Origin: Escherichia phage ph0011
DNA: 64,000 bases
Sequence record: OP557969.1
Direction: 5' to 3' (one strand)
In this document: positions 747-64,000 of the stretch, piece after piece
Layout of the letters: the number at the start of each line of letters is the position of its first letter
Numbering within the stretch: position 1 is the first letter of the stretch
The notes under the pieces: model-generated
What the model saw: the letters and a program-made list of their open reading frames with translations, nothing else
What the model was told of the DNA's origin: nothing
The model's database searches: none
Made by a program: the position numbers and the translations under genes

Positions 747-862
747 TTATACCCTCCGTTGGAGCCTTGTTAATATGTATATATTTAGTTTAATTTAACT
801 GATATCCAATATTTTATAAAATAAAAAACCAGACTTATTTGAATAAGCCCGGTTTAATTTTA

Positions 863-5057: not shown

Positions 5058-5104
5058 AATATTTCCCTTTTATGAGTGAATGTCATATACCAATATTTAT
5101 CAGT

Positions 5105-5120: not shown

Positions 5121-5166
5121 CACCATTAATAAATAAATGAAAGTTCACTACTAAAAGGGCTTAACA

Positions 5167-10731: not shown

Positions 10732-10773
10732 ATTTGTCTCCAAAATAATTCGGGTATATCTTTATTTACCATG

Positions 10774-10801
10774 TAGACAAACCATAAGAATGTGATATAA
10801 T
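10774..10801 (+). promoter_or_regulatory. Sigma70-type promoter with extended -10 (TAGACA-N16-TGaTATAAT) upstream of the ClpA-like gene
   Basis: Hexamers read directly; ~40 nt upstream of ATG 10840, which has RBS GGAGA. Confidence 0.5.
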
Positions 10802-23165: not shown

Positions 23166-23183
23166 TTGATTTATTTATTAGAT

Positions 23184-26676: not shown

Positions 26677-26743
26677 AATTTATTCCTTTAAATCAGTAAA
26701 GTACTAGTTCAGTACTGGGAATTATATAGAAATATTTATTCAA

Positions 26744-27692: not shown

Positions 27693-27700
27693 TATTTATA
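27693..27700 (-). promoter_or_regulatory. T4-late-promoter-like TATAAATA (minus strand) upstream of lysozyme gene
   Basis: Exact TATAAATA on minus strand, 17 nt upstream of the lysozyme ATG; gp55 homolog encoded in window. Confidence 0.35.
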
Positions 27701-27712
27701 GTACTAAAATAT

Positions 27713-30376
27713 TTATTGACATGCCTCTAAACGACGAGCCATTAATTCAGCACGGCGTGTTGTTTGACGATACCAAGCCGAATTTCGTATTTGAGCAGCA
27801 GCTTGTTTATAGTTTCCTTTGGCTAATTCAGACAACATGGTCTTAAATTTAAGGACACCCCCTTTACCCATCTGGAATACCATTTGACATAGAACTTGTT
27901 GTGCCATGTAAGGAGTTTTCATGTTATATGATGCATAAATTGCCTTAGCATCATAAATTGCTTTACTACTGTCTCTAACAAGCATATCATTGGCTTCTTG
28001 TTCAGTTATACCTGACGAAAAGTTCTCACCGCTAACAATTAAGTGACCGTATCCAATAGTAGGGAATCCACGACTATCTAAGTAACGCCAGAATTTACCA
28101 TTACGGTAATATCCTTTTGCTTGTTGATATTGTATTGTACCCTCATATTCTTTTAATTCCGAAATAAACTGAGCATCACCTGGGACGATTTTCCAATCTA
28201 TTGCTGTTTTATCTACGTTACCAACATTATATGTAGGTTGTTCAACTGGCGTTGATGATACACTTCTACGTTGTGTTCTTCTTTTGCGTGGTACATGTCG
28301 TGAACCACGCTGAGAATAACCAGTCCCAATTGTTTTAATTTTAGTAGTTACTACTAATTCATCACTATCTACTGACGGTTGCACAACTGCTTGCGGTGAC
28401 GATTGATTAGTTGCTTTTCCAGCAATCAAAGTTTTATTAGCTGCATCTGCTCCAATTCCAGTTTGTGATGCATAGAACAATCCCGGATCAACTGAACCAC
28501 TAAACCCAAGTACATTTGCAGACGTTACACGTATTTCAAATTGAATAACACCTTTAGCTTTACCTATAACTTGTCCTTTTTGAACAACATCTTTATTCAA
28601 TAAATCAGTTTGAATATTATAAAATATAGATTTATATCCAGATTTGTGTTGTATTAAAATACCACCATTAGTGATTGCAACAACACCACCATCTGGTGCA
28701 ACAACATCACCTTTGCATTGTATTTCCCATCCAGAACGATCTGCTTTTCCACCGTTTTGTGTTGGAATACCTTTCCCCCAGTAACCATATTGGCGAATTG
28801 TCCCACTACATGGCATATACATATGTAAACCTTCATATGTGATACTATATCCAGTCATTCCAGCATCAGATACCATCAAATCTTGTGTTTGTACTTGTTC
28901 TGTTTCAGGTGTATAGTTAATAAACTGTATAGCTTCAGTTTCTTGAGCTTCTGGAATTTCTGGCGTAACATCATTAGCAGGTTGTGGCTGTACTGGTGAT
29001 TCACTTGAAATCTTCCCACCGCCTTGTCTCGGTGGTTCAACAGTGCTACCATGTTTTTCTGCATTAACCCAAGCAGAAATGTCATGAATGTGTTCATTTA
29101 GACCCGTAGATGGTGTTTTAAAGTTAGGAGCAGTAAATTCAGCAGTCCCGCTGTTTCCTCCACTGTTAACAGTCAATGTTTGACCACCACCGCTAATTAT
29201 TGCTGATGATGAACCAATTAAATTTGCGGAAGTAGAAGCAGATATAGATGCATTTGAACCTGCGGTAATATCAGTACTACTACCACTTTGCATACGCAAT
29301 GATGCAGCAGTAACTAATCGGAGATCTGCACCAGAATTAACAACAACCTGACCACCAACTTTTGCATCAAGTGCACCAATTAAATCCAACTTAGTATTTG
29401 CACCAACACGTGCATTGAAATCTTGACCAGATTCAATATTATATGAACGACCAGCAATCATATTAATATCCTGACCAGCACGAATATTGATATTCTTATC
29501 ACAATGCATATCAATATCACCTTCACCTGTAAATTTTATGCGTGCTGTTCCGTCACGGTTAATTAACAGAACGTCGCCTGTTGCTTCTGACAGTAATAGC
29601 TGTGCACCACTGCGAGTTTTTATAACAACTCCTTCATTTTTACGGGAACCAACACGTGTATCGTTTACTGGGTTATTAAATTGTGTATCCTGATAACCAT
29701 CTGGATCTTGATCCCATGTAGGTGCGGTTAATTCCTCTTCAGTATATCCATCATCGATAATAAAACTATTTCCACGTGGTGACGACATACCATATACAGT
29801 ACTGGTTGTCTGGCGGGTGCTACTGCGATTAGCAAGACCTGCTTCTTCATCATATAAAAGGTTTTGTTTTTTCAAACCAGCAATGATTGGAACGTTTGCA
29901 TACTTATCTTGCATGTCTGTTGTGATTGTGTTACGATCATAATCAGTAACAGGGATAGGCATATCCGTTCCGCTATAACTACTAACTTCAGTTGCCATGC
30001 CTGGAACCATAGTATTCATGCGATGGTCATATACACAACCAATCCAATATGCCTGAAATGTACGTGCCTGTGCGAAAATCACAATAACAGTGCACCCAAC
30101 ATCAGGCGGTACAGCCCAGAATCCATAGCCTTTGGGATATTGACCATATGCATCGGCACTTGGAATACCTGGTGTTTTGCCAGCAAATGGTGACATATAT
30201 GATGCTTCAATCCATGATTCTTTGGAATTTTTATCACTTTGTGAACCTTGTATCCAAACTTTCAATTTTCCTGATTTAGTTGGATCTCTATTATCCATAA
30301 CCGTTGCTAACTGTGGGTAAGATGGGTCAAAACGACCCAACTGTTGTTGTGCATACTTTTTACTTGTATCTGCCAT
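27713..30376 (-). CDS. gp5: Baseplate central spike (gp5-like) with degenerate M23-like domain and C-terminal GH24 lysozyme domain (887 aa)
   Basis: N-terminal OB-like region, G/S/N-rich beta-helix repeats, M23-shaped block GWEIQCKGDVVAPDGGVVA...QFEIRV lacking the His ligands, and C-terminal lysozyme domain (EYEG...LDSRG...PTIGYGH...MVFQMG) ~55% identical to the adjacent free lysozyme. Confidence 0.8.
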   Translation of the reverse strand: MADTSKKYAQQQLGRFDPSYPQLATVMDNRDPTKSGKLKVWIQGSQSDKNSKESWIEASYMSPFAGKTPGIPSADAYGQYPKGYGFWAVPPDVGCTVIVIFAQARTFQAYWIGCVYDHRMNTMVPGMATEVSSYSGTDMPIPVTDYDRNTITTDMQDKYANVPIIAGLKKQNLLYDEEAGLANRSSTRQTTSTVYGMSSPRGNSFIIDDGYTEEELTAPTWDQDPDGYQDTQFNNPVNDTRVGSRKNEGVVIKTRSGAQLLLSEATGDVLLINRDGTARIKFTGEGDIDMHCDKNINIRAGQDINMIAGRSYNIESGQDFNARVGANTKLDLIGALDAKVGGQVVVNSGADLRLVTAASLRMQSGSSTDITAGSNASISASTSANLIGSSSAIISGGGQTLTVNSGGNSGTAEFTAPNFKTPSTGLNEHIHDISAWVNAEKHGSTVEPPRQGGGKISSESPVQPQPANDVTPEIPEAQETEAIQFINYTPETEQVQTQDLMVSDAGMTGYSITYEGLHMYMPCSGTIRQYGYWGKGIPTQNGGKADRSGWEIQCKGDVVAPDGGVVAITNGGILIQHKSGYKSIFYNIQTDLLNKDVVQKGQVIGKAKGVIQFEIRVTSANVLGFSGSVDPGLFYASQTGIGADAANKTLIAGKATNQSSPQAVVQPSVDSDELVVTTKIKTIGTGYSQRGSRHVPRKRRTQRRSVSSTPVEQPTYNVGNVDKTAIDWKIVPGDAQFISELKEYEGTIQYQQAKGYYRNGKFWRYLDSRGFPTIGYGHLIVSGENFSSGITEQEANDMLVRDSSKAIYDAKAIYASYNMKTPYMAQQVLCQMVFQMGKGGVLKFKTMLSELAKGNYKQAAAQIRNSAWYRQTTRRAELMARRLEACQ

Positions 30377-32648: not shown

Positions 32649-32963
32649 TTAGCCTATATTTCGAGTACCATTAAGATAGTTTTGTACTCTTTGATTTGCT
32701 GGTATTCTAATTGTTACCCCACTTTTAAAATTATATATTGGGTCTTCTCCTAATATGTCTGGATTTAATAATGCAAAGATATAATATAATCGTTCATTTC
32801 CGTACATTTCGTATGCCAAACGCCATGGTTGGTATTCATATTTCAATGGTATCTCATAAAAATCATCAGTATCAGCCGGAATGATATCACGTGGTAAATT
32901 ATACCCAAGATACCATGTTTGTTTCACCTTAGCATAAGGTGAGTATTGACTATAGTTGGACAT
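32649..32963 (-). CDS. Baseplate wedge protein, gp53-like with LysM-like fold (104 aa)
   Basis: RLAYEMYGNERLYYIFALLNPD resembles the T4 gp53 segment ELANAIYGNPQLYWVLLMCN (from memory); RBS GGAGG; 1-nt overlap with upstream gene. Confidence 0.45.
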   Translation of the reverse strand: MSNYSQYSPYAKVKQTWYLGYNLPRDIIPADTDDFYEIPLKYEYQPWRLAYEMYGNERLYYIFALLNPDILGEDPIYNFKSGVTIRIPANQRVQNYLNGTRNIG

Positions 32964-33694: not shown

Positions 33695-33738
33695 TTTTTG
33701 ATTCTCCATAATAAGGGAACATTTGATGTATTTATGGG

Positions 33739-35690: not shown

Positions 35691-37838
35691 ATGCTAAACA
35701 TTACACGTATATCTATGCGAAACTTCTTTTCATTCGGTAATGCACCACAAATTATTGAATTGAATAGTTCTGACATTTCATTAGTACTGGGTCAAAATAA
35801 TGATGCAGTTATTGAAGGTGGTGACAGTTCTGGACGACGAAATGGTGTAGGAAAAAGTGCAATTATTCAAGGATTAGTTTTTGGATTATTTGGAAAAAGT
35901 ATTGGGAATGATATTAAAATCCCTAACTTAGTTAATAAAACTAATGGGAAAAATTGCGAAGTTGTGGTAGAGTTTGAAAAAGACGGTGTGCAATATATTG
36001 TTGAGCGTGGGAGAAGTCCCACGTATTTCAATCTTGTTACTTTAGGTAAAGATGACAAAATTGAAGATGAATCAAGGGGTGAAAAGAAAGACACTCAAGA
36101 AGATTTGAATGAAATTCTTGGAATATCTCAATTATTATTTGAACATATTGTAGTACTGAATGCAAACGTTGAACCTTTCTTGGCGTTATCCACACAAAAA
36201 CAACGTGATATGATAGAAGAACTTCTAGGTATAACACAGTTAACAGAAAAAGCCGAAATATTAAAGGAGATGTACAAGGATACTAAACGCTTAGCAGAGC
36301 AAGAAAAGTTTAAAAATGAAACAGTTGCTGCAAGTAACGAACGTATTCAAAAAAGTATTGAGGTTCTTCAAGAACAGGCAAACCAATTTGAGATCGATAA
36401 AAGTAATAGAGTAGCGAAGTTAAATGAAGAGTTGAATATTTATAAAACGTTCGACTTCAATGAACTCTATAAAGCTGCTGAAGAGAAAGAGAAAGCTCTT
36501 ATTCATAACACAAAGCGTAATGAAATAGAACGCCGTGTACAAGATTTAGCTTTAAAATTTGATGCATATGACCGTGAGATTGAATCATCCAAACGTGCAC
36601 TAAAACTAAGCATTGATAAACTAAAAACTATTGATATTAGTGCTGAGTTGGAAAATCATAATGAACTAGAGATATGGAAACAGTTAGAAGACATTCTTAA
36701 AGAGAATAATAACCAAAAACGTTTCAAAGAGCAAAAGCTAAACTCACTAAAAGTTGCATTAAAAGGGTATGAATGTTCAATTAATGCTGAAATTGACAAA
36801 TTATCAACCGTTGAAAATAGTAAATGTCCACTTTGTATGTCAGAATTGGAACATAATGAACATACTTCTTCAATTAAAGATAAAATTCAAAGTACTATTG
36901 ACGATCTTCAAGCCAAAATTGACAGTTCTTCTTCTGAAATTGAGATTTTACTTAAAGAAATTGAGAGTATTGAGATTTTTGATATGCCACCTAAGCCTGT
37001 GACATATTATAATACACTTTCAGAAGCACAAATGCATGAACATAAGCTTCAAGAATTGATCAAAAAGAGTGAAGAAGAGCCAATAAACATCTATGCAAAT
37101 GAACTTATGTCATCATATGATGAACTTAACTCATATGAACTAATGGAAGTTCCAGATACATTAAACAAATATGAAGTTAAAGAGTTGGAAATGACCGTAA
37201 ATTCATTATCACAGCAATTAGATCGTGAATTGAAGACTACTAACACATTTATTAGTCAAATTAATACCCTGAAGACTGATTCTTTAGTACCAATCGATTA
37301 TAGTGACTATAATAATCTTGATAAAATGTCAAATCACCAAGATTTCTTGGTTAAATTACTTTTAAACAAGGATTCTTATGTCCGTAAACGTATTATTGAG
37401 CAAAATATCTCATATTTGAATACACGACTTCAGTACTATATCGATATGTGCGGTTCTGAGCATAATGTTGTGTTTTTGAATGATTTGAGTGTTGAAATTG
37501 AGAAGAGTGGGCAGTACTTTGACTATAAACAGCTTAGTCGTGGCGAGCGTACAAGGGTAAACATTGCTTTATCATGTGCTTTCCGTGATACATACGAGTC
37601 ATTATATCAAAGTATCAATCTAATAGCACTAGATGAAGCTTGTGATGTTGGTCTTGATTCAAGTGGTGTAGTTAAAGTGTGGTCAATCTTCAATGACATG
37701 GCTGCTATCAGAAATAAAAATGTATATATCATCTCTCATAGAGAAGAACTAGTTTCTAAGACTGAACATATACTTAAAGTAACTAAAGAAGATGGTTTTA
37801 GTACTATAAGTTACTGTACAATTGATGATATCTATTAA
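35691..37838 (+). CDS. gp46: Recombination/repair ATPase, SbcC/Rad50-like (T4 gp46-like, 715 aa)
   Basis: N-terminal Walker A GRRNGVGKSAII, central coiled coil with zinc hook CPLC, C-terminal signature LSRGERTRVNIAL and Walker B LIALDEACDVGLD. Confidence 0.9.
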   Translation: MLNITRISMRNFFSFGNAPQIIELNSSDISLVLGQNNDAVIEGGDSSGRRNGVGKSAIIQGLVFGLFGKSIGNDIKIPNLVNKTNGKNCEVVVEFEKDGVQYIVERGRSPTYFNLVTLGKDDKIEDESRGEKKDTQEDLNEILGISQLLFEHIVVLNANVEPFLALSTQKQRDMIEELLGITQLTEKAEILKEMYKDTKRLAEQEKFKNETVAASNERIQKSIEVLQEQANQFEIDKSNRVAKLNEELNIYKTFDFNELYKAAEEKEKALIHNTKRNEIERRVQDLALKFDAYDREIESSKRALKLSIDKLKTIDISAELENHNELEIWKQLEDILKENNNQKRFKEQKLNSLKVALKGYECSINAEIDKLSTVENSKCPLCMSELEHNEHTSSIKDKIQSTIDDLQAKIDSSSSEIEILLKEIESIEIFDMPPKPVTYYNTLSEAQMHEHKLQELIKKSEEEPINIYANELMSSYDELNSYELMEVPDTLNKYEVKELEMTVNSLSQQLDRELKTTNTFISQINTLKTDSLVPIDYSDYNNLDKMSNHQDFLVKLLLNKDSYVRKRIIEQNISYLNTRLQYYIDMCGSEHNVVFLNDLSVEIEKSGQYFDYKQLSRGERTRVNIALSCAFRDTYESLYQSINLIALDEACDVGLDSSGVVKVWSIFNDMAAIRNKNVYIISHREELVSKTEHILKVTKEDGFSTISYCTIDDIY

Positions 37839-38442: not shown

Positions 38443-38534
38443 AAATCCCCACCAAACTAATTTTTATAAAAATATTTATGAGTTACATTAGAGAACAATA
38501 ATTATGTGTTTTTTGATAAATAAATTTAAATTAT

Positions 38535-38564
38535 TTGAGACAACTTTGAAGTTTGTGCTATAAT
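38535..38564 (+). promoter_or_regulatory. Near-consensus sigma70 promoter TTGAGA-N18-TATAAT in ORF-poor region
   Basis: Hexamers read directly at 38535-38540 and 38559-38564; no plausible coding gene downstream before the terminator at 39017-39040. Confidence 0.5.
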
Positions 38565-38570
38565 GTTTGA

Positions 38571-39040
38571 TGTAGTAATGACAATCCTGTTGAATGCAGA
38601 AATGCATATAAATTAGAACCTGATCCTATCGAAAATGTAGATGGCAGATGAGCAGTTCAACAGTGCGATGAGCAGAAGAAACCCGTCAGAAGTGGGCATA
38701 GTTTGAACCCCTCACGGCAATGCGGCTCAATAAAGAACTCCGATAAGCACACAGAGAGTTCCTAGATAGACATATAAGGAATCACACCTTACCAGATTTG
38801 CTAAGGGAGTTTATTAATTGATTTTAATAAACAGCCTGAAGTTTGATTGTATAGACTTTCAGGTGAGTGCTGGGATGAAAAGACCAGTGACCGTTGCATA
38901 TGACCGTGATAGGGAGAAACAGAGCAACCCGCTTCCGTTTGTGATTGATCATTTTTACAATATAGATCCGTCCAAAATTCACGATACAATAAATGCTGAA
39001 ACCATCAGCGTCAAGAAGAGACTTAATTGTCTCTTTTTTA
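38571..39040 (+). ncRNA. Candidate non-coding RNA of unknown class (~470 nt)
   Basis: Bounded by the promoter above and an intrinsic terminator; largest non-coding gap in the window (~850 bp); only short or terminator-crossing ORFs; local hairpins and a 9-nt direct repeat GATGAGCAG x2. Confidence 0.35.
39017..39040 (+). terminator. Intrinsic terminator (plus strand)
   Basis: Stem AGAGAC/GTCTCT, loop TTAATT, followed by TTTTTTATT. Confidence 0.55.
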
Positions 39041-39251
39041 TTACTTTCATTCCCCTGTGGGGGGATGAAAATGTCCTCAACAAATCCCGTCAAGTTTTAA
39101 ATCTTTAAAAGTTCTTTCTAAATTAATTTAATGAAATGAATATGAGTTACGTAGTAACGAATATTCTTCAGGTAACGAATGAAATGAGTTAGCTGAATCC
39201 AATATATTAAAATTAATCTTTCATAATTCAATTCAAATAATTCTGTAGTTT

Positions 39252-39281
39252 AAAAACAAAAAACCAGCAACAATGTGCTGG
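39252..39281 (-). terminator. Intrinsic terminator (minus strand) downstream of gene 39294-39503
   Basis: Stem CCAGCA/TGCTGG with 6-nt loop, followed on minus strand by T-rich run (TTTTTTGTTTTT). Confidence 0.7.
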
Positions 39282-39293
39282 TAATTATGTGAT

Positions 39294-40339: not shown

Positions 40340-40462
40340 TTTGTTAAATCTCCATGTAATAAATGTGTTTGTAGTATTTATAATACTAAAAACAAACAAT
40401 TTTTTTATATTATATATAGTTTCATAAATATTTCTATAATACATCTATTAAAAGGGAATGTT

Positions 40463-42664
40463 ATGGCTGGAAATACAAGTGATTACCTACTACAACAGTT
40501 GGTTAATCAAACTAAAGATAACAATGATAGCTTGAGTGCTATACGTGAGTTATTGGCTGAAAATATAAAAAATGACAGAAAGAAATCCGGTTCTAAAAGT
40601 AGAAAACATAACGAAAGAACTTCATCTGGTTCTGGGAATCGTGGTTCTAAAGCTAATAATGTAGGTGGTGGTAAAGAATTTGGTAAAATATTCAAATCAT
40701 TATCATCTGAAGTATCAAATGTTGGAAAAACAATGATGAGTACATCTGCTAACGTCAGCAACGTTGTCAATTCACTGGGAATGAGTGCATCTTCATTTGC
40801 TGGTTCACTGGCAATGATTCCTGGGCCAGTTGGTGCAGCCGCTACTGCTTTTAAAATGGTCGCTGACGTTGGTATGGCAGTATATAATGTATTAAACGCA
40901 CAACTTGAAGTTTATAATAGAATAAACAGTGCTGGTGTTGCCCTATCTGAAGGTTATGGTTCCATATTAAAAGGTGCAGGTGCATCAATGATGAGTGTTG
41001 ATGCATTTGGTGAAGCATTACAAACACATAGTTCCGTTGTTGCACAATTGGATGGAGCATATGGTGATGGTGTTTCCACCTTTGGTAAATTATTGGGTAC
41101 TGTACAACAGGCACAAAATCAATTGGGTTTATATGGAGTTTCACAAAAAACACTAACTGATTTAACTGCACGTAATATTAAATTCCAAAAGCAATTTGGT
41201 GGAAGAGAAATGTTACGTAGTATGGATCAAGCAAAAAGTACTGAACAGTTTATCATGAGCATGACTAAGTTCAGTAAAAGTATGGGTGAGTCGGTTGATG
41301 CACTATTAAATAAAACACAAAACTTAGATAAATCATTAGATACACGTTCAATGCAAATAGCATTACAGAACTATTCTGGGCTATCAGGTAAAGCAGCAGT
41401 CGAAACGTCAAAAGCATTTAACGAAGCTGCTGCGAGTATGGGTGATGCTGGTGCAGATTTCCTACGTTTAATTTCACATCGTTTAACCATTGGTGGTGTA
41501 CCAGATGATTTATTGACTCCAGTACTTAATCAATTTGCTGACTTAGGTGAGAACTTGGTACGTAGTGGTGTTACTGATTCGCAAGAAATTCGCCGCCAGC
41601 AGATAGAATTTGTTAAAAAGAACAAAGAATTAATAAAGCAAGATTTATTACATCAGATTAATTTAGGAAACACTACTGCTGCAATCTTCAACCAACAACT
41701 ACTCGATATGGAAGCTGCGATAAACGATCCTAAGAGTCAACCAGCAGATAAATTAACACAATTCACTGATAGATTCAACAGATGGATTAGTAAAGAGTTT
41801 ACTGGACCATTTAATAAAATGTATGCAGATACACAAAATTCTATTGCGGATTACCTTACTGATATTGCTGATAGTACTGATGGTGCATGGGAATTCATCG
41901 GAAAGTTAGCACTTGATGGTTTTGGTTTGGTTCCTATTGCGAAAGATGCCGTTGTGTATTTGGATAGGATCGGTGGTGAGTTTGAGCAGTGGTTAGAAGG
42001 GTTAGGTACTGAAATTTTTGGTAGTGGATATAATAAAGTTTCAGAAGCATTCAATAGTTTTATGAATAACTTAATGGATTTACCTGGAAAACTATGGGAT
42101 TCTGTAAAAGGTTGGTTTGGTGGTTCGAAAGATAAACCAAAAGTTGATAATAATTCAGTCACCGATGGAGTAGAAAAAGTTAATAGCTACTTCGAAGATA
42201 AAATGAATTCATTTGGGGATTATATTTCCAATTCATTTGACCATTTTTTGAAATGGAATTCAAGTAGGAACTTTAAACAACCTAAACCACTTGATGGTTC
42301 AGTTGCAGAAAAACTTATTGGTACTGGTATTGATAGTAAACCCACAACAACTACTAGAATCGAAAAATCTGAACACGTTGCTCCGTATGTTACCATTACA
42401 CCAAAAACTTTTGATAAGTCAGCATGGGGACCGAATGAACCGCCAGTTCAAGCTCAACCGGACGATAATGAGGCTATGAAAGCGATGATAAATAATGGTA
42501 GTAGTATGGCAAATATTAATAATAATGCCACAATATCAGAAGATATGAAAGAGTTACTTAAAAAACTTGCTGATGTTAACGAGCAATCACTATCTGCTGT
42601 ACAACAGACAAATAACTATCTAAGAACTATCTCTGAAAACACTCAAGGTGAGAGAAACAGTTAA
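40463..42664 (+). CDS. Ala/Gly/Ser-rich helical virion protein (733 aa), possibly tape-measure-like or ejected internal protein
   Basis: RBS AAAGGGAA; low-complexity basic N-terminus, long helical A/G/S/Q-rich body; immediately upstream of portal gene. Confidence 0.4.
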   Translation: MAGNTSDYLLQQLVNQTKDNNDSLSAIRELLAENIKNDRKKSGSKSRKHNERTSSGSGNRGSKANNVGGGKEFGKIFKSLSSEVSNVGKTMMSTSANVSNVVNSLGMSASSFAGSLAMIPGPVGAAATAFKMVADVGMAVYNVLNAQLEVYNRINSAGVALSEGYGSILKGAGASMMSVDAFGEALQTHSSVVAQLDGAYGDGVSTFGKLLGTVQQAQNQLGLYGVSQKTLTDLTARNIKFQKQFGGREMLRSMDQAKSTEQFIMSMTKFSKSMGESVDALLNKTQNLDKSLDTRSMQIALQNYSGLSGKAAVETSKAFNEAAASMGDAGADFLRLISHRLTIGGVPDDLLTPVLNQFADLGENLVRSGVTDSQEIRRQQIEFVKKNKELIKQDLLHQINLGNTTAAIFNQQLLDMEAAINDPKSQPADKLTQFTDRFNRWISKEFTGPFNKMYADTQNSIADYLTDIADSTDGAWEFIGKLALDGFGLVPIAKDAVVYLDRIGGEFEQWLEGLGTEIFGSGYNKVSEAFNSFMNNLMDLPGKLWDSVKGWFGGSKDKPKVDNNSVTDGVEKVNSYFEDKMNSFGDYISNSFDHFLKWNSSRNFKQPKPLDGSVAEKLIGTGIDSKPTTTTRIEKSEHVAPYVTITPKTFDKSAWGPNEPPVQAQPDDNEAMKAMINNGSSMANINNNATISEDMKELLKKLADVNEQSLSAVQQTNNYLRTISENTQGERNS

Positions 42665-44415: not shown

Positions 44416-44438
44416 ACATAAATAATATTGTATAAAAG

Positions 44439-44488: not shown

Positions 44489-44716
44489 ATGTTAAAGGAC
44501 ATCTTTGAATCTAGCAGTGATTCAATGTACGACCCTGAAGATGATCAGAACGTATATAAAATTACTGATTCCAGAAAACCGAAACTGACATTACAAGTAC
44601 TAAACAATTTAAGAAAGTATCGTGAATTTAAAGCACATGAAGAACAACGCCGCAAAAATGTGGTTGCAGTTGTTTATGCCGCTGCACCATCTGGTGACGG
44701 TTCTGGACTAATGTAA
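44489..44716 (+). CDS. Small hypothetical protein (75 aa), prohead core candidate by position
   Basis: RBS AAGGAGA 5 nt upstream; sits where T4 has gene 67. Confidence 0.4.
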   Translation: MLKDIFESSSDSMYDPEDDQNVYKITDSRKPKLTLQVLNNLRKYREFKAHEEQRRKNVVAVVYAAAPSGDGSGLM

Positions 44717-44817
44717 GTTAAAAATCGCACTTTTTGAAGCTTTTAAAAAAGGCGATTTTATTCAGTACTAAATAATATCATACTTTATACGAATATAATA
44801 TATCTATGGAGGATATA

Positions 44818-45654
44818 ATGGCGAATTTAAAACTACTACAAGAAGCAATTGCGGCGTTTGCAAATGGCGAGCAAGATATTGCTGATAAAAAAATGCGTAA
44901 GTATTTTGTTGAACAAGCACAAGAAATTAACAAAAAGCTAGAAGAAAGCATGGAAGACGAAGAAAGCATTGAAGATGAAGACGTCGAAGATGAAGAAAAG
45001 CTTGATGAAGATTTTGACGTACAACCAGATGCAGGTCTTAATGCAGAAATCCAATACACCCTTGGTGAAGAAGATGAAAGTGCAGAAGACGAAGTTGAGA
45101 TTTCTGCTGATGCAGATGCCGATGGTGAAGATGATGTTGATGTTGATGTAAAAGCAGATGCTGAAGTTCCTTCTGAAGATCAATGGGAATCAATTCAAGA
45201 TGCTTTCCGTGGTCTACAGCAAATGTTTGATGAAATTGGTGATGGTGAAGTTGACCTAGACTCCGATGAAGAAGTCGAAGATAGTGAAGAAGAAGTTGGT
45301 GTTGATGGTGATGATGAATTCGCTGATATTGAATTTGGTGATGAAAAAATCGGTGAATCATTCAAACTAGAAAAAGTTGCACCAGTTGATAAGAAAGAAA
45401 AAGCAGGAACTCATACTAAATCACCAGTTGCACCAGAAGCTAAATCACCAGTAGATGGTGTAGAACCAGTTAAATTCGCTAAGAAAACTGATCAAGCACC
45501 ACTAGTTGATCTTGATGATAAATCTGTTCTACCAAAAGATAATCTAGATCTTGGTAAAAACGCTCGTGGTGAAATGAAAGATGTCAAAGAACCAAAAACT
45601 ACTGCATCTAAGTCCAAATCACCACTAAGCAAAGCACAACCTAAACTAAAATAA
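44818..45654 (+). CDS. Highly acidic Asp/Glu-rich protein, prohead core / internal head protein candidate
   Basis: ATG 44818 (MANLKLLQEA) has RBS GGAGGA; the ORF-track ATG 44806 lacks one; long D/E runs; sits between portal and gp21 protease where T4 has gene 68. Confidence 0.5.
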   Translation: MANLKLLQEAIAAFANGEQDIADKKMRKYFVEQAQEINKKLEESMEDEESIEDEDVEDEEKLDEDFDVQPDAGLNAEIQYTLGEEDESAEDEVEISADADADGEDDVDVDVKADAEVPSEDQWESIQDAFRGLQQMFDEIGDGEVDLDSDEEVEDSEEEVGVDGDDEFADIEFGDEKIGESFKLEKVAPVDKKEKAGTHTKSPVAPEAKSPVDGVEPVKFAKKTDQAPLVDLDDKSVLPKDNLDLGKNARGEMKDVKEPKTTASKSKSPLSKAQPKLK

Positions 45655-45674
45655 ATATCTGAAAGGAGATCATT

Positions 45675-46298
45675 ATGAGTAGTATGATTCGTGAATGGTC
45701 TTCATTCAATGATTCTAAAGTTGTTTTGGAACATCGTGATAATGGATTTGGTGGGCGTGATTGCTATCTTCGTGGCATTGCTATTCAAGCTGACCAACGA
45801 AATTTGAACGAGAGAATTTACCCTTTATCTGAAATTACAAGGGCAGTAAATAACATGAACCAGCGTTTAGCTAAAGGTGAAAGCATTCTTGTTGAATGTG
45901 ACCATCCAGAAACATTAACTATTAATCTGGACCGAGTAGCAGCAATGATTACTAAGGTTTGGATGGAAGGTGCTAATGGTATGGCAGAAATCAAATTACT
46001 TGATACTGCACATGGTCAAAATATCCGTAAAATGCTAGAGGCTGGTGTGAAACTTGGTGTAAGTTCTCGCGGTTCCGGTAACGTTGATTATAATGGAATA
46101 GTTTCTGATTTTGAAATTATCACTATTGATATTGTTGCTCAACCTAGTGCTCCAGAAGCATACCCAACAGCGGTATTTGAATCTCTGATGAGTAAGTACG
46201 GATCACCTTGTAAAAGTTCTAAAAAAATCACTGAATCTAAAAAGGTAAATAACTTAGATTCCGAAATATACGATTTTTTCAAGAAATTAAAAGGTTAA
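45675..46298 (+). CDS. gp21: Prohead core protease, T4 gp21 family (207 aa)
   Basis: YLRGIAIQADQRNLNERIYP, HPE...KLGVSSRGSG and QPSAPEAY blocks align with T4 gp21 (YIEGIFMQAEVVNRNKRLYP, GWIPGVSSRGLG, GPSAPDAW); RBS AAAGGAGA. Confidence 0.9.
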   Translation: MSSMIREWSSFNDSKVVLEHRDNGFGGRDCYLRGIAIQADQRNLNERIYPLSEITRAVNNMNQRLAKGESILVECDHPETLTINLDRVAAMITKVWMEGANGMAEIKLLDTAHGQNIRKMLEAGVKLGVSSRGSGNVDYNGIVSDFEIITIDIVAQPSAPEAYPTAVFESLMSKYGSPCKSSKKITESKKVNNLDSEIYDFFKKLKG

Positions 46299-46309
46299 CA
46301 TTTTAAAAA

Positions 46310-46317
46310 TATAAATA
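46310..46317 (+). promoter_or_regulatory. T4-late-promoter-like TATAAATA upstream of scaffold gene
   Basis: Exact TATAAATA, 47 nt upstream of ATG 46365; same TAAATATCTG context recurs at 45652. Confidence 0.4.
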
Positions 46318-46364
46318 TCTGTATATTGAAGTACAGATATTTCAGTACTTAAAGGAGAGAACGA

Positions 46365-47480
46365 ATGTCTAAATTAGAAAAGCTTCTAAAAGAATCATCT
46401 CTTTCTGATGAGGCAAAACAGCTAATTCAGGAAGCATGGAATGAAGAAAAGAATACACTAGCCGCAGAGATGCGTGAAGAAATGAAAGGTCGTTACCAGC
46501 AGGATTTGGCTGAACTAACTGAAGGTTTGAACACTATGGTTACTCAAGTCATTGCTGAAGAAATGGGTGCTGTATATGAAGAGAAAAAACGTCTTGTTGA
46601 AGATCGTGTAACTCTACGTAAAACACTAAGCAATTTCTCTGCGTTTTCGAACTCTGTATTGGCAGAAGAAGTTAAACAAATGCGTAAAGAACGTAAGCAT
46701 CTTCATGAATGTATGGGTAAATTTGTTAATTTTTCTAACGGTATCCTAGCAGAAGAGCTAAAAGAATTCCACAATGAAAAACGTCAACTAGTTGAAACAC
46801 GTGTAAAACTACTTGCTGAAGGTTCACGTCAAATTGCTGAAGCTCGTAATAACTTCATCAAACGTACATCTGAAAGTGCTGCTAAATATATTGCAGAGAC
46901 AACTCAGAAGAATCTATATGCGTTGAAACAAGATCTAGTGGAAGCGAAACAAAATATGTTTGGTCGTAAAATCTTTGAAGCATTTGCTCAAGAATTTAAT
47001 GTCAAACAATTCAATGAAAATTCATTGCTACGTTCACTAACTGAAACAATTAAATCTAAAGAAGATGAAATTGATCAAGTTAAGCAAGAACTACATGAAA
47101 CTGTTAATGCGGTCAAAGCTGCTAAAACTAAACTACGTATTATGGAAGATGCACAAGCCCGTAATGCGATTATGTCTGAACTAGTAAAACCACTAACAGC
47201 ACAGCAAAAACAAATTATGGAATCCCTTCTAGCAACTTCACCTACTGAAAAGCTTAAAGAAGATTTCAATAAGTACCATAAGTCAGTACTTAACGGTACT
47301 AAAGTAAATGAATCTGCTACCACTCGTCAAGCAGTTCAGTCTTCCGCTAAGAAAACTCTTGCAGAAGGTAAAGTGATCACTGGCAACCGTCAGGCTATTG
47401 TTGAAAGCGAAGAAATGACCGCTGACGATATGGCATTCCTAAAAGAACTTGATGTTCTTTCTGGTATCAATAAAAAATAA
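46365..47480 (+). CDS. gp22: Prohead scaffold protein, gp22-like (371 aa)
   Basis: Coiled-coil E/K/A/L-rich sequence; between gp21 and gp23 homologs; RBS AAGGAGAG. Confidence 0.7.
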   Translation: MSKLEKLLKESSLSDEAKQLIQEAWNEEKNTLAAEMREEMKGRYQQDLAELTEGLNTMVTQVIAEEMGAVYEEKKRLVEDRVTLRKTLSNFSAFSNSVLAEEVKQMRKERKHLHECMGKFVNFSNGILAEELKEFHNEKRQLVETRVKLLAEGSRQIAEARNNFIKRTSESAAKYIAETTQKNLYALKQDLVEAKQNMFGRKIFEAFAQEFNVKQFNENSLLRSLTETIKSKEDEIDQVKQELHETVNAVKAAKTKLRIMEDAQARNAIMSELVKPLTAQQKQIMESLLATSPTEKLKEDFNKYHKSVLNGTKVNESATTRQAVQSSAKKTLAEGKVITGNRQAIVESEEMTADDMAFLKELDVLSGINKK

Positions 47481-47518
47481 ATATTTTAAAGCATTTTAAT
47501 AATCAAATTTTTCAGTTC

Positions 47519-47526
47519 TATAAATA
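47519..47526 (+). promoter_or_regulatory. T4-late-promoter-like TATAAATA upstream of major capsid gene
   Basis: Exact TATAAATA, 46 nt upstream of ATG 47572. Confidence 0.45.
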
Positions 47527-47571
47527 ATAACATACTGAAAAACGAATATAACATCTTTAAGGAGATATATA

Positions 47572-48747
47572 ATGTCACAACTACTAAATGAATCCAAATG
47601 GGTAGCAGTAAAAGAGAAACTAGTTGAAGGTCTACAGGGTACTCGTAAGTCTGTAATGGAAACTGTTCTTGATAACCATCGTAAAGTTATGCTAACTGAA
47701 TCTGCAACTTCTGGTGCAACTACTGCTGGTAACATCGCTACTCTAAACAAAGTGATTCTACCAATTATGCGTCGTGTAATGCCAACTGTTATTGCGAACG
47801 AAATTATCGGTGTTCAACCAATGACTGGTCCAGTTGGTCAGATTCACACCCTACGTGTGCAATATGCTGATAATGCACCTGGTGTTATTGCTGGTGAAGA
47901 AATGCTTTCTCCATACAAAATTGCAAAATCCTACTCTGGTGAACTAAATTCTGATAATAGCAACCCACAAGCTGCTCCTACTAGTCAACTAGAAGGTACT
48001 ATGGGTCGTCGCGTAAATATCCGTATCCTACGTGAAACTGTTGAAGCGAAATCACGTCGTCTATCTGCACGTTGGACTGTTGAATCTGCACAAGATGCAC
48101 AATCTCAACATGGTGTTGATGTTGAAGCTGAACTAATGGCAGCAATTGCACAAGAAGTTACTGTAGAAATCGACCAAGAACTACTAAGCCGTCTACGTGC
48201 ACTACCAGGTGCTGCTGCTGTAACTTATGACCAATCTAAAGTTACCGGTGTTGCAACTTTCGTAGGTGATGAACACGCTGCTCTAGCTACCCTAATCAAC
48301 CGTCAAGCTAACGAAGTTGCTCGTCGTACCAAGCGTGGTGCAGCAAACTGGGCCGTTGTTTCCCCAACTGCTCTAACCATTCTACAGTCTGCAACTACTT
48401 CTAGCTTTGCACGTACCACTGAAGGTACTTTTGAAGCACCAACTAACGTTAAGTTTGTAGGTACTCTAAACAGCACCATGCGTATCTTTGTTGATACCTA
48501 TGCAAGTGATTCTGAAGATATCCTAATTGGTTATAAAGGTAATGCTGAAACTGATGCTGGTGTATTCTATTGCCCATACATCCCACTAATGGCATCCGGT
48601 ACTGTTATGGACCCTAACACTGGTGAATTGGTTACAACTTTCCTAACTCGTTATGGTTACGTACAATTGACCGACAGCACTTCCTCTCTTGGTAACGCTG
48701 CTGACTACTATAGCAAAATCGCTATCAAAAACGTTACTTTCATGTAA
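47572..48747 (+). CDS. gp23: Major capsid protein, T4 gp23 family (391 aa)
   Basis: Blocks IIGVQPMTGPVGQIHTLRVQYA, VEAKSRRLSARWTVESAQDAQSQHGVDVEAEL and GYKGNAETDAGVFYCPYIPL align with T4 gp23; RBS AAGGAGA. Confidence 0.9.
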   Translation: MSQLLNESKWVAVKEKLVEGLQGTRKSVMETVLDNHRKVMLTESATSGATTAGNIATLNKVILPIMRRVMPTVIANEIIGVQPMTGPVGQIHTLRVQYADNAPGVIAGEEMLSPYKIAKSYSGELNSDNSNPQAAPTSQLEGTMGRRVNIRILRETVEAKSRRLSARWTVESAQDAQSQHGVDVEAELMAAIAQEVTVEIDQELLSRLRALPGAAAVTYDQSKVTGVATFVGDEHAALATLINRQANEVARRTKRGAANWAVVSPTALTILQSATTSSFARTTEGTFEAPTNVKFVGTLNSTMRIFVDTYASDSEDILIGYKGNAETDAGVFYCPYIPLMASGTVMDPNTGELVTTFLTRYGYVQLTDSTSSLGNAADYYSKIAIKNVTFM

Positions 48748-48790
48748 TTATAATCGATTTAAAAAAATAATCAAGAAATTAAAAACAAAA

Positions 48791-48818
48791 AGGGACTCTG
48801 ATGAGTCCCTTTTCTTTT
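48791..48818 (+). terminator. Intrinsic terminator after major capsid gene
   Basis: Stem AGGGACT/AGTCCCT, loop CTGATG, T-run TTTTCTTTT. Confidence 0.8.
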
Positions 48819-48889
48819 ATCTAAATATTGACAAACAGTACTGAAACATGTTATGCTTATGTAAATATAGTAACTATAGAGGAATTTAA

Positions 48890-50488
48890 ATGCTTGGTGA
48901 AATCAAACAGTTTTTGAAGACGAAAAAGTTAAGAGGTGTAAAATCTGCACTTCAAGCAAAACCATTATATGTTGATTACTTAAAAGAAATTTATGGTGAT
49001 ATCGAACTGAATGTTATCATTTACATGGTATTGAATGATATTAAAGAAATTCCAAAAGCAAAATGTGGTAACGATGTAAAGTTTGTTAATTTAATTGAGG
49101 GATTCAGTGACAGATGTAATCTACCGTTTCAGGGAAAAAATAAATGTAAAGTTTGTTCTGTAATGATTTCTGAAAAAAGAAAAAGTACATACAAGAATAA
49201 AACTGGGTATGATAATCCCGGACAGAATCCAGACGTTCGTGACAAGATGTCAAGAACTAATATTAATCGTTACGGAACTACTGTTCCCCAGCAGACCGAT
49301 GTTGTCAAAAAACGTTCAATTGAGACAAATCTTCTTAAGTACGGAGTTGAACATCCCTCAATGTTGGAAGAAAACAAAGAGAAACGCCAAAAAACTGTTT
49401 TTGAAAAGTATGGTGTAGATAATGTACTTAAAACTACACATAAACGCCTTGAAGAACGTTATATGAATTTCAAGAAAAAATATGAATATTCTGGAAAATA
49501 TACATTACTTAGTTCAATTGAAGAGTATGATTCTTCTGTTAATGGTGTTAAAAGTATTCTTTTATGGAAATGTAATACTTGCAACAATACTTTCAATAAA
49601 GTTGCACCGTGTTTAAGATGTCCTAAATGTGAACCATACTCTTCCAGTACTGAAGAAGTTGAATTATATGAATATATTTCATCAATCTATGACGGTGTAA
49701 TTATCCAGAATAGTAGGAATATTATCACAGGTAATGAGATTGATATTTTCATTCCAGAACTGAAACTTGGTATTGAGTTCAATGGTGAGTACTGGCACAG
49801 AGACGAAGTGCGTGGTAATAATTATCATCAGAGCAAATATATTCGTATGAAGGAAAATGGCAACAAACTTATTACTATATATAGTAATGAATGGCGTAAT
49901 AAAACTGACATCGTTAAGCGTAGATTAAAAAGCATTTTAAATACTGATAATAGAGTGTACGCTCGTAAGTGTACTATCGGTTTAGTTCAGAATGATGTAT
50001 GTGATGAGTTTTTGAATACATATCATATACAGGGTAAGTGTAGTTCTTCGATTCGCGTAGGTCTGTATTTGGAAACAGAACTTGTTGCAGTAATGACATT
50101 CGGTAAACCAAGATTTAACAAAGAATATGAATATGAACTACTCCGTTATTGTTCCAAAGATACAGTGGTTGGTGGTGCTTCAAAACTGTTAAAATATTTC
50201 GAAATTACACATGTTCCAAAATCTTTGATATCTTATGCTGATATGAATTGGAGTTCTGGTAATCTATATGAAGCAATTGGATTTCAATTTGTTGAAATGA
50301 CGAAACCTGGATATTTCTATTATGATAAAAAAACAGAAACCACATATTCCAGATACCAATGTCAAAAGCAAAAACTAATATCAAAGTTTGGATTTCCTAA
50401 CACAATGACAGAGAATGAAATGACACGATCACTTGGTTATTACAAAATATATGATTGTGGTAATTTAGTATATAAAAAAGAATACTAA
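48890..50488 (+). CDS. Multi-domain freestanding nuclease, homing-endonuclease-like (532 aa)
   Basis: N-terminal CxxC pair, three ~21-aa repeats ending in [RK]YG, zinc ribbon CNTCN...CLRCPKC, Vsr/DUF559-like PD-(D/E)xK core IDIFIPELKLGIEFNGEYWH, C-terminal domain with GGASKLL motif; inserted between capsid gene and fiber module. Confidence 0.6.
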   Translation: MLGEIKQFLKTKKLRGVKSALQAKPLYVDYLKEIYGDIELNVIIYMVLNDIKEIPKAKCGNDVKFVNLIEGFSDRCNLPFQGKNKCKVCSVMISEKRKSTYKNKTGYDNPGQNPDVRDKMSRTNINRYGTTVPQQTDVVKKRSIETNLLKYGVEHPSMLEENKEKRQKTVFEKYGVDNVLKTTHKRLEERYMNFKKKYEYSGKYTLLSSIEEYDSSVNGVKSILLWKCNTCNNTFNKVAPCLRCPKCEPYSSSTEEVELYEYISSIYDGVIIQNSRNIITGNEIDIFIPELKLGIEFNGEYWHRDEVRGNNYHQSKYIRMKENGNKLITIYSNEWRNKTDIVKRRLKSILNTDNRVYARKCTIGLVQNDVCDEFLNTYHIQGKCSSSIRVGLYLETELVAVMTFGKPRFNKEYEYELLRYCSKDTVVGGASKLLKYFEITHVPKSLISYADMNWSSGNLYEAIGFQFVEMTKPGYFYYDKKTETTYSRYQCQKQKLISKFGFPNTMTENEMTRSLGYYKIYDCGNLVYKKEY

Positions 50489-50867: not shown

Positions 50868-50906
50868 TAGATAAATATCTCCATATTAATGATGGAGATT
50901 GAATCT

Positions 50907-51215: not shown

Positions 51216-51255
51216 GAATAAATATAGTATATATTAATCATAAAGGGATTTATAC

Positions 51256-52869
51256 ATGAGCATAAGTTTTAATAACCCACTGGATACAATGACCAGTACT
51301 GGTGCTAATGGTTCTTTGGAACTAATAGTGCTTGGTGGTACACCAACTAACCCAAGACCTATTCGTTTTAATTCATCATCAGTTATTATGCCAGTAAAAA
51401 CATTACCGACTGGTGAACAAGGTGCAATGGTTTTTGATAGAAACGAATTAGTGTTAAAGTATCATAATGGTACTAGTTGGATTGCAATATACGACAATGA
51501 TACTATTTTAGAACCAATTAGGGTTTCGTTGGATGAAGTAAACAGAAAATTAAACTTAAAGGTTGAAAGTGTAACATACAGTAGTAGTTCTGTTCCAAGT
51601 GCAAGTATCAGTGGAACAAACTTAAACATCGTATTCCCTACTGTTTCTAGTGGTGGTGGTTCAGGGCCAACTGGCCTTTATACTTCACTTAAACCTGGTG
51701 TTATCACACAGTACGCATTGACTTCTGGTCAAAACGTTGCTAGTATACGTGAACAAATGTCTGGACAAACCAATGGTCAAAATGGACGAAATGGTTCGCA
51801 AGCTGCTCCATGGAAAACATCAGATGGATGGTGCTTTGCTGATGGTATGTGGTGGCAATGGGAAGGTGAAAATGGCACAGTTACTAAACAAGTACCAAAT
51901 CTTAACAGAAACGCGTATTTAAAAGGGATATCCACATCAGGGGTAACCAAAACGGATAGTGTTATTGGGAGCAGTGGTAACATTAGCGGAACTGTTTTGA
52001 GTGTAGCACAATTGCCTTCACATTCATTTAGTTTTAGCGGAAGAACTGATGCTGCTGGTCGCCACAGCCATAGTCAAGCACTAAAAGGTATGGACCGAAG
52101 TGGTCTAAATGCGTTAACATCAAGTAATGATAACGGTATACCAACAGTAATTAGTAACATTAATGAAGCACCAGACCATGTTCACTCATTTAGTGGAAAC
52201 ACAAACACACTTGGTGGGAATCAGCCACATTATCATGGTATCAGTAATGTTGATGTTGAGCACTTTAACGTGGCATATTTATATAACATTGCAGAATCAA
52301 ACGTAGCACTGAGTGAAAAAGTAGCAAATACGCGTTATGTACTGAAATCAGGTGATACAATGACTGGTTCTTTAACTATTGCCAACAGTGCATCTATTAA
52401 GTCTAATGATACATCATTAGTTCTATATTTCCGTAACGCAAGCGGCGGTGAACGTGCGGCTGTTTACCATAATTCATCAAACAACACGTTGCGATTACGT
52501 TCCGGTGGTGCTGAAGTAGCAGTAAACTCTTCAGGTAACTTGTCTGCTCCTTCATTAACTGTTTCTAATAATTCAGCTACTGTTGGTGGTAAAAATATTG
52601 TTCGCACTATCAATGGTACAGCGGCTGATGGTAATGGTAATGTTTCATTGCAAATTAATTCGAATAACGTACAAAGTATTCGTTTGAGTGCAAGAATTGA
52701 AACAAGTAAAATTCCAGATTCTTCATGGACATACGCACCTGAAGGTGCACTCATGGATGGTGTATGGATTTCAGTGAACGGTAGTTCAGGAACTCATTTG
52801 GAACGTATTAGCTATCGTTATATTCAAATGCAGGTAAATGGCAATTGGGAAACGGTACGACAACAATAA
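51256..52869 (+). CDS. Tail fiber protein (537 aa), partner of downstream Tfa chaperone
   Basis: RBS AAAGGGA; G/S/T/N-rich; immediately followed by tail-fiber-assembly gene. Confidence 0.55.
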   Translation: MSISFNNPLDTMTSTGANGSLELIVLGGTPTNPRPIRFNSSSVIMPVKTLPTGEQGAMVFDRNELVLKYHNGTSWIAIYDNDTILEPIRVSLDEVNRKLNLKVESVTYSSSSVPSASISGTNLNIVFPTVSSGGGSGPTGLYTSLKPGVITQYALTSGQNVASIREQMSGQTNGQNGRNGSQAAPWKTSDGWCFADGMWWQWEGENGTVTKQVPNLNRNAYLKGISTSGVTKTDSVIGSSGNISGTVLSVAQLPSHSFSFSGRTDAAGRHSHSQALKGMDRSGLNALTSSNDNGIPTVISNINEAPDHVHSFSGNTNTLGGNQPHYHGISNVDVEHFNVAYLYNIAESNVALSEKVANTRYVLKSGDTMTGSLTIANSASIKSNDTSLVLYFRNASGGERAAVYHNSSNNTLRLRSGGAEVAVNSSGNLSAPSLTVSNNSATVGGKNIVRTINGTAADGNGNVSLQINSNNVQSIRLSARIETSKIPDSSWTYAPEGALMDGVWISVNGSSGTHLERISYRYIQMQVNGNWETVRQQ

Positions 52870-53391: not shown

Positions 53392-53432
53392 AAATTGAGA
53401 CAGCACTGAAATGTATGATACAATTTAGTCAT

Positions 53433-60843: not shown

Positions 60844-60920
60844 TTATTTATCAAAAAATATCATCAGCATTTAAATTTACTGAAATAATTAATGAATTTC
60901 TATGATATTATTTATCAAAA
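60844..60920. repeat. Two 13-bp direct repeats TTATTTATCAAAA (60844-60856 and 60908-60920) in divergent promoter region
   Basis: Read directly; the reverse complement contains GATAAATAA (late-promoter-like, minus strand); the second copy abuts the -35 of the RNase H promoter. Confidence 0.5.

Positions 60921-60959: not shown

Positions 60960-64000
<3,041 letters not shown>

Follow-up and report, generated by a model that had tools for sequence, protein, structure and literature searches.

Do the short A/T-rich boxes that recur upstream of virion genes in Escherichia phage ph0011 (sequence record OP557969.1) serve as late promoters of the bacteriophage T4 type, and does the phage encode the factor that would read them? 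We addressed this question in a stretch of 64,000 nucleotides (nt) of this DNA, referred to below as the window, in which the box is best described as the 7-mer ATAAATA. As set out below, these boxes are very probably late promoters, recognized by a T4 gp55-like sigma factor that the phage itself encodes.

By its sequence, the window belongs to an Asteriusvirus-like (PBECO4/121Q/RaK2-group) jumbo myovirus. In a megablast search the region 45000–49000 matched Asteriusvirus jumbo myoviruses (PBECO4, 121Q, G17, phAPEC6 and others) at ~94.7%, and the window is collinear over its entire length with phage EC22.5-2 at 88–93% nucleotide identity, Asteriusvirus genomes overall being ~88–95% identical. 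It carries tail fibre, baseplate, tail lysozyme, portal, protease, scaffold and capsid genes, distributed over both strands, and ClpA-like, gp47, gp46, endonuclease VII, DNA polymerase and RNase H genes are interspersed among them. Non-coding DNA makes up 3.2 kb (5%) of the window and has a G+C content of 28%.

Gene starts were set by tblastn mapping of annotated G17 proteins onto the window. Expected motif counts were derived from dinucleotide-preserving shuffles of the spacers (n = 1000) for the non-coding DNA of the window, and from an order-2 Markov model for the EC22.5-2 genome (352 kb), which was assembled from an unannotated record and for which open reading frames were called in this analysis. 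For comparison between phages we used the portal-to-capsid regions of RaK2, CBB, GAP32, Munch, fHe-Yen9-04, Vibrio phage 2.275.O, PA5oct and Atu_ph07. Motif statistics, orientation, spacing, gene-class association, conservation, gp55 homology and the conservation of pocket residues were all computed directly.

ATAAATA in the spacers before virion genes

A preliminary description of this DNA had drawn attention to a recurring (T)ATAAATA(T) motif upstream of virion genes, present as exact copies of the 8-mer TATAAATA and as close variants. The recurrence is real, and far above chance once the motif is defined as ATAAATA; this 7-mer, and not the 8-mer, is the conserved unit, and it corresponds to T4 positions -12 to -6. 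The 8-mer itself is not enriched: it has 6 matches in the window against 9.95 expected, and its 4 intergenic copies (1.86 expected) were equalled or exceeded in 131 of 1000 shuffles. ATAAATA occurs 23 times on the two strands of the window, and 20 of these copies touch non-coding DNA, where 5.25 ± 2.24 were expected; not one of 1000 dinucleotide shuffles reached 20. No other 7-mer is as widespread in non-coding DNA, 14 of 30 segments having at least one copy. The comparison with a shuffled background, which had been proposed as a check, therefore places ATAAATA off its background frequency and reveals a strong positional bias.

The same word is scarce elsewhere. Its count in the whole window lies under the expectation (23 versus 38.5 ± 5.9), and within genes it is depleted approximately 12-fold (3 versus 35.6 ± 5.9 expected). 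In the EC22.5-2 genome ATAAATA is found 52 times against 204 expected, which makes it the most depleted among all 128 A/T-only 7-mers. Intergenic DNA holds 34 of these 52 copies, of which 32 are in sense orientation with a start codon at most 120 nt away, with box-to-start spacers of mostly 29–50 nt; the first 130 kb of the EC22.5-2 record contain no promoter-like ATAAATA site. A 7-bp A/T box would otherwise be frequent by chance in DNA of 34% G+C, and has therefore probably been purged from the rest of the genome: so short a promoter can work only if the genome avoids the same word elsewhere. The sole genic copies in the window, at 36437–36443 (-), 52276–52282 (-) and 42488–42494 (+), comprise two antisense copies (in the gp46 gene and a tail fibre gene) and one sense copy, which precedes the portal gene by 181 nt. 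These three may be late promoters of an antisense or internal kind, or may just have escaped the purge.

The intergenic copies are arranged as expected for promoters of the T4 late type. In co-directional spacers the copies are directed at the downstream gene in 12 cases and away from it in 1 (p = 0.003), and in three divergent spacers the copies occur singly or as outward-facing pairs, each directed toward a virion gene. The distance from box to ATG ranges from 16 to 110 nt, with a median of approximately 35 nt and most values between 29 and 50 nt. An alignment and information profile of 20 sites revealed no conservation on the upstream side, and accordingly no -35 element, as well as no TG extension; the base preceding ATAAATA is T in only 4 of the 20. 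On the downstream side, the five bases after the box (positions +7 to +11 from the first base of ATAAATA) are A/T-rich, and the position 6 nt downstream of the box is A at 17 sites (p = 9e-6) and a purine at 19. As the T4 late consensus TATAAATA spans positions -13 to -6 (PMC2988020), this conserved A lands exactly on the T4 +1 position. Several boxes lie directly 3' of intrinsic terminators, for instance before the giant gene and the baseplate wedge gene, an arrangement that looks like that of a re-initiation point.

The box is associated with one class of genes. Virion and morphogenesis genes with a usable spacer carry it in 14 of 17 cases, compared to 2 of 12 other genes (Fisher p = 7e-4). 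The remaining three virion genes have CTAAATA or GTAAATA at the same distance, followed by the same N5-ATA(Y) downstream (Table 1). Replication genes lack ATAAATA and have sigma70-like TGnTATAAT promoters.

Conservation in relatives provides additional support. The box is invariant at the scaffold and capsid genes of RaK2, CBB, GAP32, Munch, fHe-Yen9-04 and a Vibrio phage, which belong to different genera, and the scaffold proteins of the compared relatives are 30–74% identical to that of the window. Upstream of the scaffold gene ATAAATAT is invariant across eight phages, Atu_ph07 included, and apart from it only the Shine-Dalgarno sequence and the ATG are invariant there. Upstream of the capsid gene, in seven phages, ATAAATAA together with ATA at the predicted start forms the sole invariant block besides the ribosome-binding site and the ATG. 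The orthologous spacers of CBB and GAP32 carry the box as well. In PA5oct the genes are fused into one unit, and the box is found only before the first gene of the run. The protease-proximal copy (45651) recurs, among the relatives examined, only in Munch.

The coordinates in the preliminary description were all correct when rechecked. They comprised exact copies of TATAAATA before the scaffold (ATG 46365), capsid (ATG 47572) and lysozyme (ATG 27676) genes, and ATAAATA variants upstream of the gene starts 45675, 40463, 50907, 51256, 5167, 5057 (-), 26676 (-), 33694 (-) and 60798 (-). A few of these sites are weak, such as the protease site (45650–45657), which overlaps a stop codon. Our search added the sites 23172 (-), 27710 (-), 38473 (-), 40375 (-), 44418 (+) and 47477 (+). 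The reading of the motif as a late promoter, also put forward there, is supported in that box anatomy, orientation, spacing, gene class, genic avoidance and conservation in relatives all fit the T4 type.

A gp55-type sigma factor and the proposed mechanism

The window encodes a gp55 homolog at 33825–34664, as had been suggested. The 279-residue protein matches phrog_234 ("late sigma transcription factor") at 3e-17, and a profile of its homologs matches T4 gp55 (PDB 7D7C) at 1.7e-6. The profile was required for this, as a phmmer search with the single sequence returned no matches among PDB sequences; Pfam and NCBIfam recognized neither the sigma protein nor the sliding clamp described below. 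In the cryo-electron microscopy structure of the T4 late complex, gp55 flips the adenines A-12, A-9 and A-8 into pockets formed by N13, L54, R57, F86, H95, Y97 and T99 (PMC7892883). Identical to T4 are N13, F203 (equivalent to F86), Y223 (Y97) and T225 (T99), whereas the window protein has I, K and F at the positions of L54, R57 and H95. In the family alignment F203, Y223 and T225 are invariant and N13 is present in at least 90% of the proteins. Its fold is sigma region-2-like, and it carries the residues of the pocket that reads DNA, as expected of a gp55 homolog. The three adenines flipped in T4 all lie within ATAAATA, which explains why position -13 can be relaxed.

Taken together, we infer that RNA starts at the boxes late in infection, in dependence on the gp55 homolog and perhaps with activation by the phage's sliding clamp as in T4. 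Early in infection, the host sigma70 holoenzyme would transcribe the sigma gene from its TGCTATAAT promoter; such a sigma70-type promoter on the sigma gene fits a transcription cascade. The gp55-type minimal sigma would then bind the host core RNA polymerase and read ATAAATA as a -10-like element, at T4 positions -12 to -6 and without a -35 contact. Upon promoter opening the adenines at -12, -9 and -8 would be flipped into the protein pockets, and initiation at the conserved A 6 nt past the box would give leaders of approximately 25–45 nt for head, tail, baseplate and fibre genes.

Several points weigh against this interpretation. The literature searched holds no late transcripts of RaK2-group phages with mapped 5' ends or start sites. 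Position -13, a T in the T4 consensus, is variable in this phage, and the sites at 45651, 47477 and 27710 overlap stop codons and are weak. The copies at 38516 (+) and 60909 (-) may represent UP-like DNA of sigma70-type promoters. The box also precedes two genes that are not obviously structural, encoding endonuclease VII and a T5orf172-domain protein; the latter gene is located among fibre genes, and the T4 endonuclease VII gene is likewise driven by a late promoter. The sigma protein contains an insertion of approximately 120 amino acids (residues ~28–140) between the N-terminal helix and the core, and it ends in ...ERKNEDGSI, with the C-terminal LDFL clamp-binding motif (SLDFLY in T4) not found. 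Finally, gp33 was not found by phmmer or BLASTP with T4 gp33 in the window or in EC22.5-2, although these searches are insensitive and miss gp55 as well.

With regard to these features of the sigma protein, the inserted domain consists of helices and a small beta sheet; it is conserved in the family and absent in T4 gp55. An LDFL-like motif is absent in 18 of 19 aligned homologs, and the one regular-expression match (FDYI, P0120) lies outside the C-terminal tail.

The window further encodes a PCNA/gp45-like sliding clamp, a possible activator of late transcription. A search for its partners, based on the DNA polymerase-like tail (..NNGFFTW), yielded no convincing proteins. Searches with T4 gp33, gp45, DsbA, gp59, gp62 and RpbA by phmmer and BLASTP in the window and in EC22.5-2 detected gp44 alone, with the same insensitivity that leaves gp55 unseen. 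PHROGs and Pfam did not reveal gp33 among the small proteins of the window, nor did they lend any support to a synteny-based assignment of the genes 62005–62490 and 62535–63218, which follow RNase H, as T4 dsbA and gene 33. Orthologs of gp33 are reported from group 2 jumbo phages in a comparative study (Iyer et al. 2021).

These observations allow a more speculative reading, which we consider rather unlikely: the late transcription of RaK2-group jumbo phages would be a rewired T4 system that has kept the box, gained a domain of ~120 amino acids, lost the clamp tail and perhaps lacks gp33. If so, the extra domain could stand in for gp33 or for the contact with the clamp, and activation would be either clamp-independent or coupled to the diverged PCNA-like clamp via a new interface.

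Alternative explanations, sites and neighbouring features

A second class of promoters is present in the window, with TGnTATAAT extended -10 boxes before the ClpA, sigma and RNase H genes, a near-match (TGAGATATAAT) at the clamp gene, and a TGAAAC-type upstream box at some other genes. Promoters of this class lie at 10793, 33759, 38556 and 60942 (+), and also at 48838–48857 and 53395–53424; they precede ClpA, the sigma gene, a non-coding element, RNase H, a homing endonuclease and a small regulator-like gene.

The ATAAATA boxes might themselves be host sigma70 signals, either degenerate -10 hexamers or A/T-rich UP elements, with the virion genes read by the unmodified holoenzyme. The motif is indeed A/T-rich and at the expected -10 location. 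Two of its copies, 38516 (+) and 60909 (-), lie within TTTTGATAAATAA and approximately 30–35 nt upstream of TGCTATAAT in the manner of an UP element, and UP-like elements have been reported at RpoD-type promoters of related phages. However, in no frame does ATAAATA combine an A at position 2 with a T at position 6, the pair that sigma70 requires in a -10 hexamer, and the sites have neither a -35 box nor a TG extension. In the head gene region matches to the sigma70-type consensus are not enriched (35 versus 41 expected), and the clear TGnTATAAT promoters belong to a separate, non-structural gene set. The strong genic avoidance of the 7-mer would also be unexpected for UP-like sequence. A sigma70 origin of the boxes is, in our view, very improbable.

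It is also improbable, to a slightly lesser degree, that the motif acts in RNA, as a processing or stability site of polycistronic late mRNA, or that it binds another regulator, for example a DsbA/GapR-like protein. Primary and processed 5' ends are indistinguishable by sequence, a caveat raised for T4 (PMC2988020), many boxes lie inside long co-directional gene runs, and T4 DsbA has been reported on A/T-rich sites overlapping late promoters. Against this, in the divergent pairs 5094/5129 and 40375/40424 each box faces one gene, leaving no upstream transcript to process, and several boxes come right after terminators. The box is moreover identical to the stretch of the T4 late promoter read by gp55, the window encodes a gp55 homolog with conserved reading residues, and a DsbA homolog was not recognized in the window. 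Least credible is that the recurrence is a functionless by-product of A/T-rich spacers and TAA stop codons. The low G+C content of the non-coding DNA (28%), the three copies that overlap TAA stop codons and the lack of enrichment of the exact 8-mer would suit such a by-product, but none of the 1000 dinucleotide-preserving spacer shuffles attained the observed count. Nor would it account for the orientation bias, the fixed spacing and the conserved A at +1, for a box that is invariant in otherwise diverged orthologous spacers, or for the ~12-fold genic depletion.

Recognition of the boxes as late promoters would be of practical value mainly for annotation, as they delimit approximately 18–20 late transcription units in the window and approximately 32 in a complete relative genome. 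They also distinguish late genes from early and middle genes, which are of the sigma70 type. Genus records carry no promoter features; that of G17 has terminators annotated, and no promoters. The individual sites, and the two proteins discussed above, are listed in Table 1. The box at 40424 is the probable promoter of the operon that contains the portal gene.

Table 1. ATAAATA boxes, their variants and the associated transcription proteins in the window.
Feature	Coordinates	Strand	Context
Variant CTAAATA	782..788	-	35 nt before ATG (746) of long tail fibre proximal subunit; followed by N5-ATAT
ATAAATA	5094..5100	-	36 nt before ATG of virion structural gene 3930-5057; divergent spacer, paired with 5129 (+)
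ATAAATA	5129..5135	+	31 nt before ATG of structural gene 5167-5664
Variant GTAAATA	10763..10769	-	31 nt before ATG (10731) of structural gene 9238-10731
ATAAATA	23172..23178	-	Directly after intrinsic terminator; 39 nt before giant 3323-aa gene (start 23132)
ATAAATA	26733..26739	-	After terminator; 56 nt before baseplate wedge gene (start 26676)
TATAAATA	27693..27700	-	16 nt before tail lysozyme gene (start 27676); proximal, leader would be very short
ATAAATA	27710..27716	-	Overlaps hub-lysozyme stop codon; 33 nt before lysozyme ATG
ATAAATA	33729..33735	-	34 nt before structural gene 32963-33694
gp55-type late sigma factor, 279 aa	33825..34664	+	TGCTATAAT promoter 5'; gp47 and gp46 homologs 3'
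ATAAATA	38473..38479	-	30 nt before endonuclease VII gene (start 38442)
Ambiguous ATAAATA in TTTTGATAAATAA	38516..38522	+	33 nt (38523-38555) upstream of TGCTATAAT match 38556-38564
TATAAATA	40375..40382	-	35 nt before baseplate hub gene (start 40339)
ATAAATA	40424..40430	+	32 nt before structural gene 40463-42664
ATAAATA	44418..44424	+	64 nt before small gene 44489-44716; conserved in RaK2, CBB, GAP32, Yen9-04
Variant CTAAATA	44768..44774	+	After terminator; 43 nt before structural gene 44818-45654; ATAAATA in relatives
ATAAATA	45651..45657	+	Overlaps stop codon; 17 nt before protease gene; weak
TATAAATA	46310..46317	+	47 nt before scaffold gene; ATAAATAT invariant, 8 phages
ATAAATA	47477..47483	+	Overlaps scaffold stop codon; 88 nt before capsid ATG; doubtful second site
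TATAAATA	47519..47526	+	45 nt before major capsid gene; ATAAATAA invariant, 7 phages
ATAAATA	50871..50877	+	29 nt before T5orf172-domain gene (start 50907)
ATAAATA	51218..51224	+	31 nt before tail fibre gene (start 51256)
PCNA/gp45-like sliding clamp, 243 aa	57426..58157	+	Recognized by fold/structure; "hypothetical" in relatives
ATAAATA	60845..60851	-	46 nt before virion structural gene 60199-60798
Ambiguous ATAAATA in TTTTGATAAATAA	60909..60915	-	Just upstream of TGCTATAAT promoter of divergent RNase H gene

Other features of the window are recorded here for completeness. The interval 38443–39293 is an 851-nt gap free of genes, in which the + strand (38556–39045) carries a TGCTATAAT promoter, approximately 470 nt of G+C-richer sequence and an intrinsic terminator. 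Its RNA fold has a z-score of -4.85, it has no Rfam match (nor did a search of the whole window with Rfam match any family), and related copies exist at three further EC22.5-2 loci with approximately 75–83% identity. It has the appearance of a structured non-coding element in several copies, or of a candidate non-coding RNA family. In the large terminase gene (63196–64000, +) the ortholog match ends at 63460, after approximately the first 90 codons, and the frame stops at 63495; what follows in the window bears no relation to the terminase genes of either G17 or EC22.5-2. The pattern suggests that the terminase is interrupted by an inserted element (an intron, an intein or a homing endonuclease gene) that runs past the end of the window. 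A homing endonuclease of 532 amino acids (phrog_3339, 5e-136) is encoded at 48890–50488 (+), after the capsid gene terminator, and is served by a separate TTGACA/TATGCT promoter. G17 and EC22.5-2 lack this endonuclease and have another gene in its place. The free-standing tail lysozyme (27188–27676, -) shares 52% identity with the last 160 residues of the neighbouring 887-residue hub-lysozyme (27713–30376, -), which points to a local duplication. In addition, the neighbouring genes 59494–60183 and 60199–60798 are paralogs, and the products of 863–1759 and 1776–3917 are similar over their N-terminal ~100 amino acids.

Comparison with known late promoter systems

The boxes resemble T4 late promoters in having a -10-like A/T box with an AT-rich segment behind it and no -35 element, in initiation approximately 6 nt after the box (here predicted from sequence), and in their placement on either strand before head, tail and fibre genes. 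The window also encodes a gp55 homolog of the same fold, with four pocket residues identical to those of T4 (N13, F86, Y97 and T99 in T4 numbering), and a gp45/PCNA-like clamp. The sigma gene precedes gp47 and gp46, and this relative order is that of T4, whose 55 and 47 are separated by a-gt, mobB and small open reading frames. In contrast to T4, where the consensus is matched perfectly at 32 of 50 late sites and position -13 is an A at 9 (PMC2988020), only positions -12 to -6 are conserved here, with T at -13 in 4 of 20 sites. The sigma protein comprises 279 amino acids versus 185 in T4, through the insertion of ~120 amino acids after the N-terminal helix, and it lacks the C-terminal LDFL clamp-binding motif. 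Whereas T4 gp55 works with gp33 and gp45, gp33 was not detected here by searches that are insensitive. How a gp55 homolog with an extra domain, and without the clamp-binding tail, is activated is a point of modest interest.

T4-like cyanophages, S-PM2 and Syn9 among them, have a NATAAATA late motif with a relaxed first position and an ATAAATA core before homologs of T4 late genes, and they encode g55 (PMC2984593). They differ in that homologs of g33 and g45 are recognizable there, whereas here the clamp was recognized by fold only and gp33 was not found. For PA5oct, an RNA sequencing study reported only TATAATA/TTGAC promoters.

The closest counterpart lies within the same clade. "Promoter 3" of CBB, ATAAATA including CTAAATA variants, was predicted by MEME at 35 sites upstream of structural genes; the authors compared it with the late promoter of T4, pointed to a gp55-like sigma in CBB and stated that the motif occurs in GAP32, citing Abbasifar et al. 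2014 (Buttimer et al. 2017, PMC5259590). The motif list of the window matches Table S7 for CBB: CBB and GAP32 share with it the 7-mer, the CTAAATA variants, the A/T-rich downstream segment and the placement before structural genes. The companion TGAAAC...TGnTATAAT class is present here too and matches the "divergent RpoD-like" promoters listed for CBB. The window differs from CBB and GAP32 in its genus, which is Asteriusvirus-like and for which the literature searched held no description of the motif, and from CBB in its clamp, as gp45 was reported absent from CBB and the clamp was found here by structure. The boxes are an already described kind of signal in a described clade and leave the accepted picture unchanged; the residual novelty lies not in them but in the altered gp55 and the unannotated clamp.

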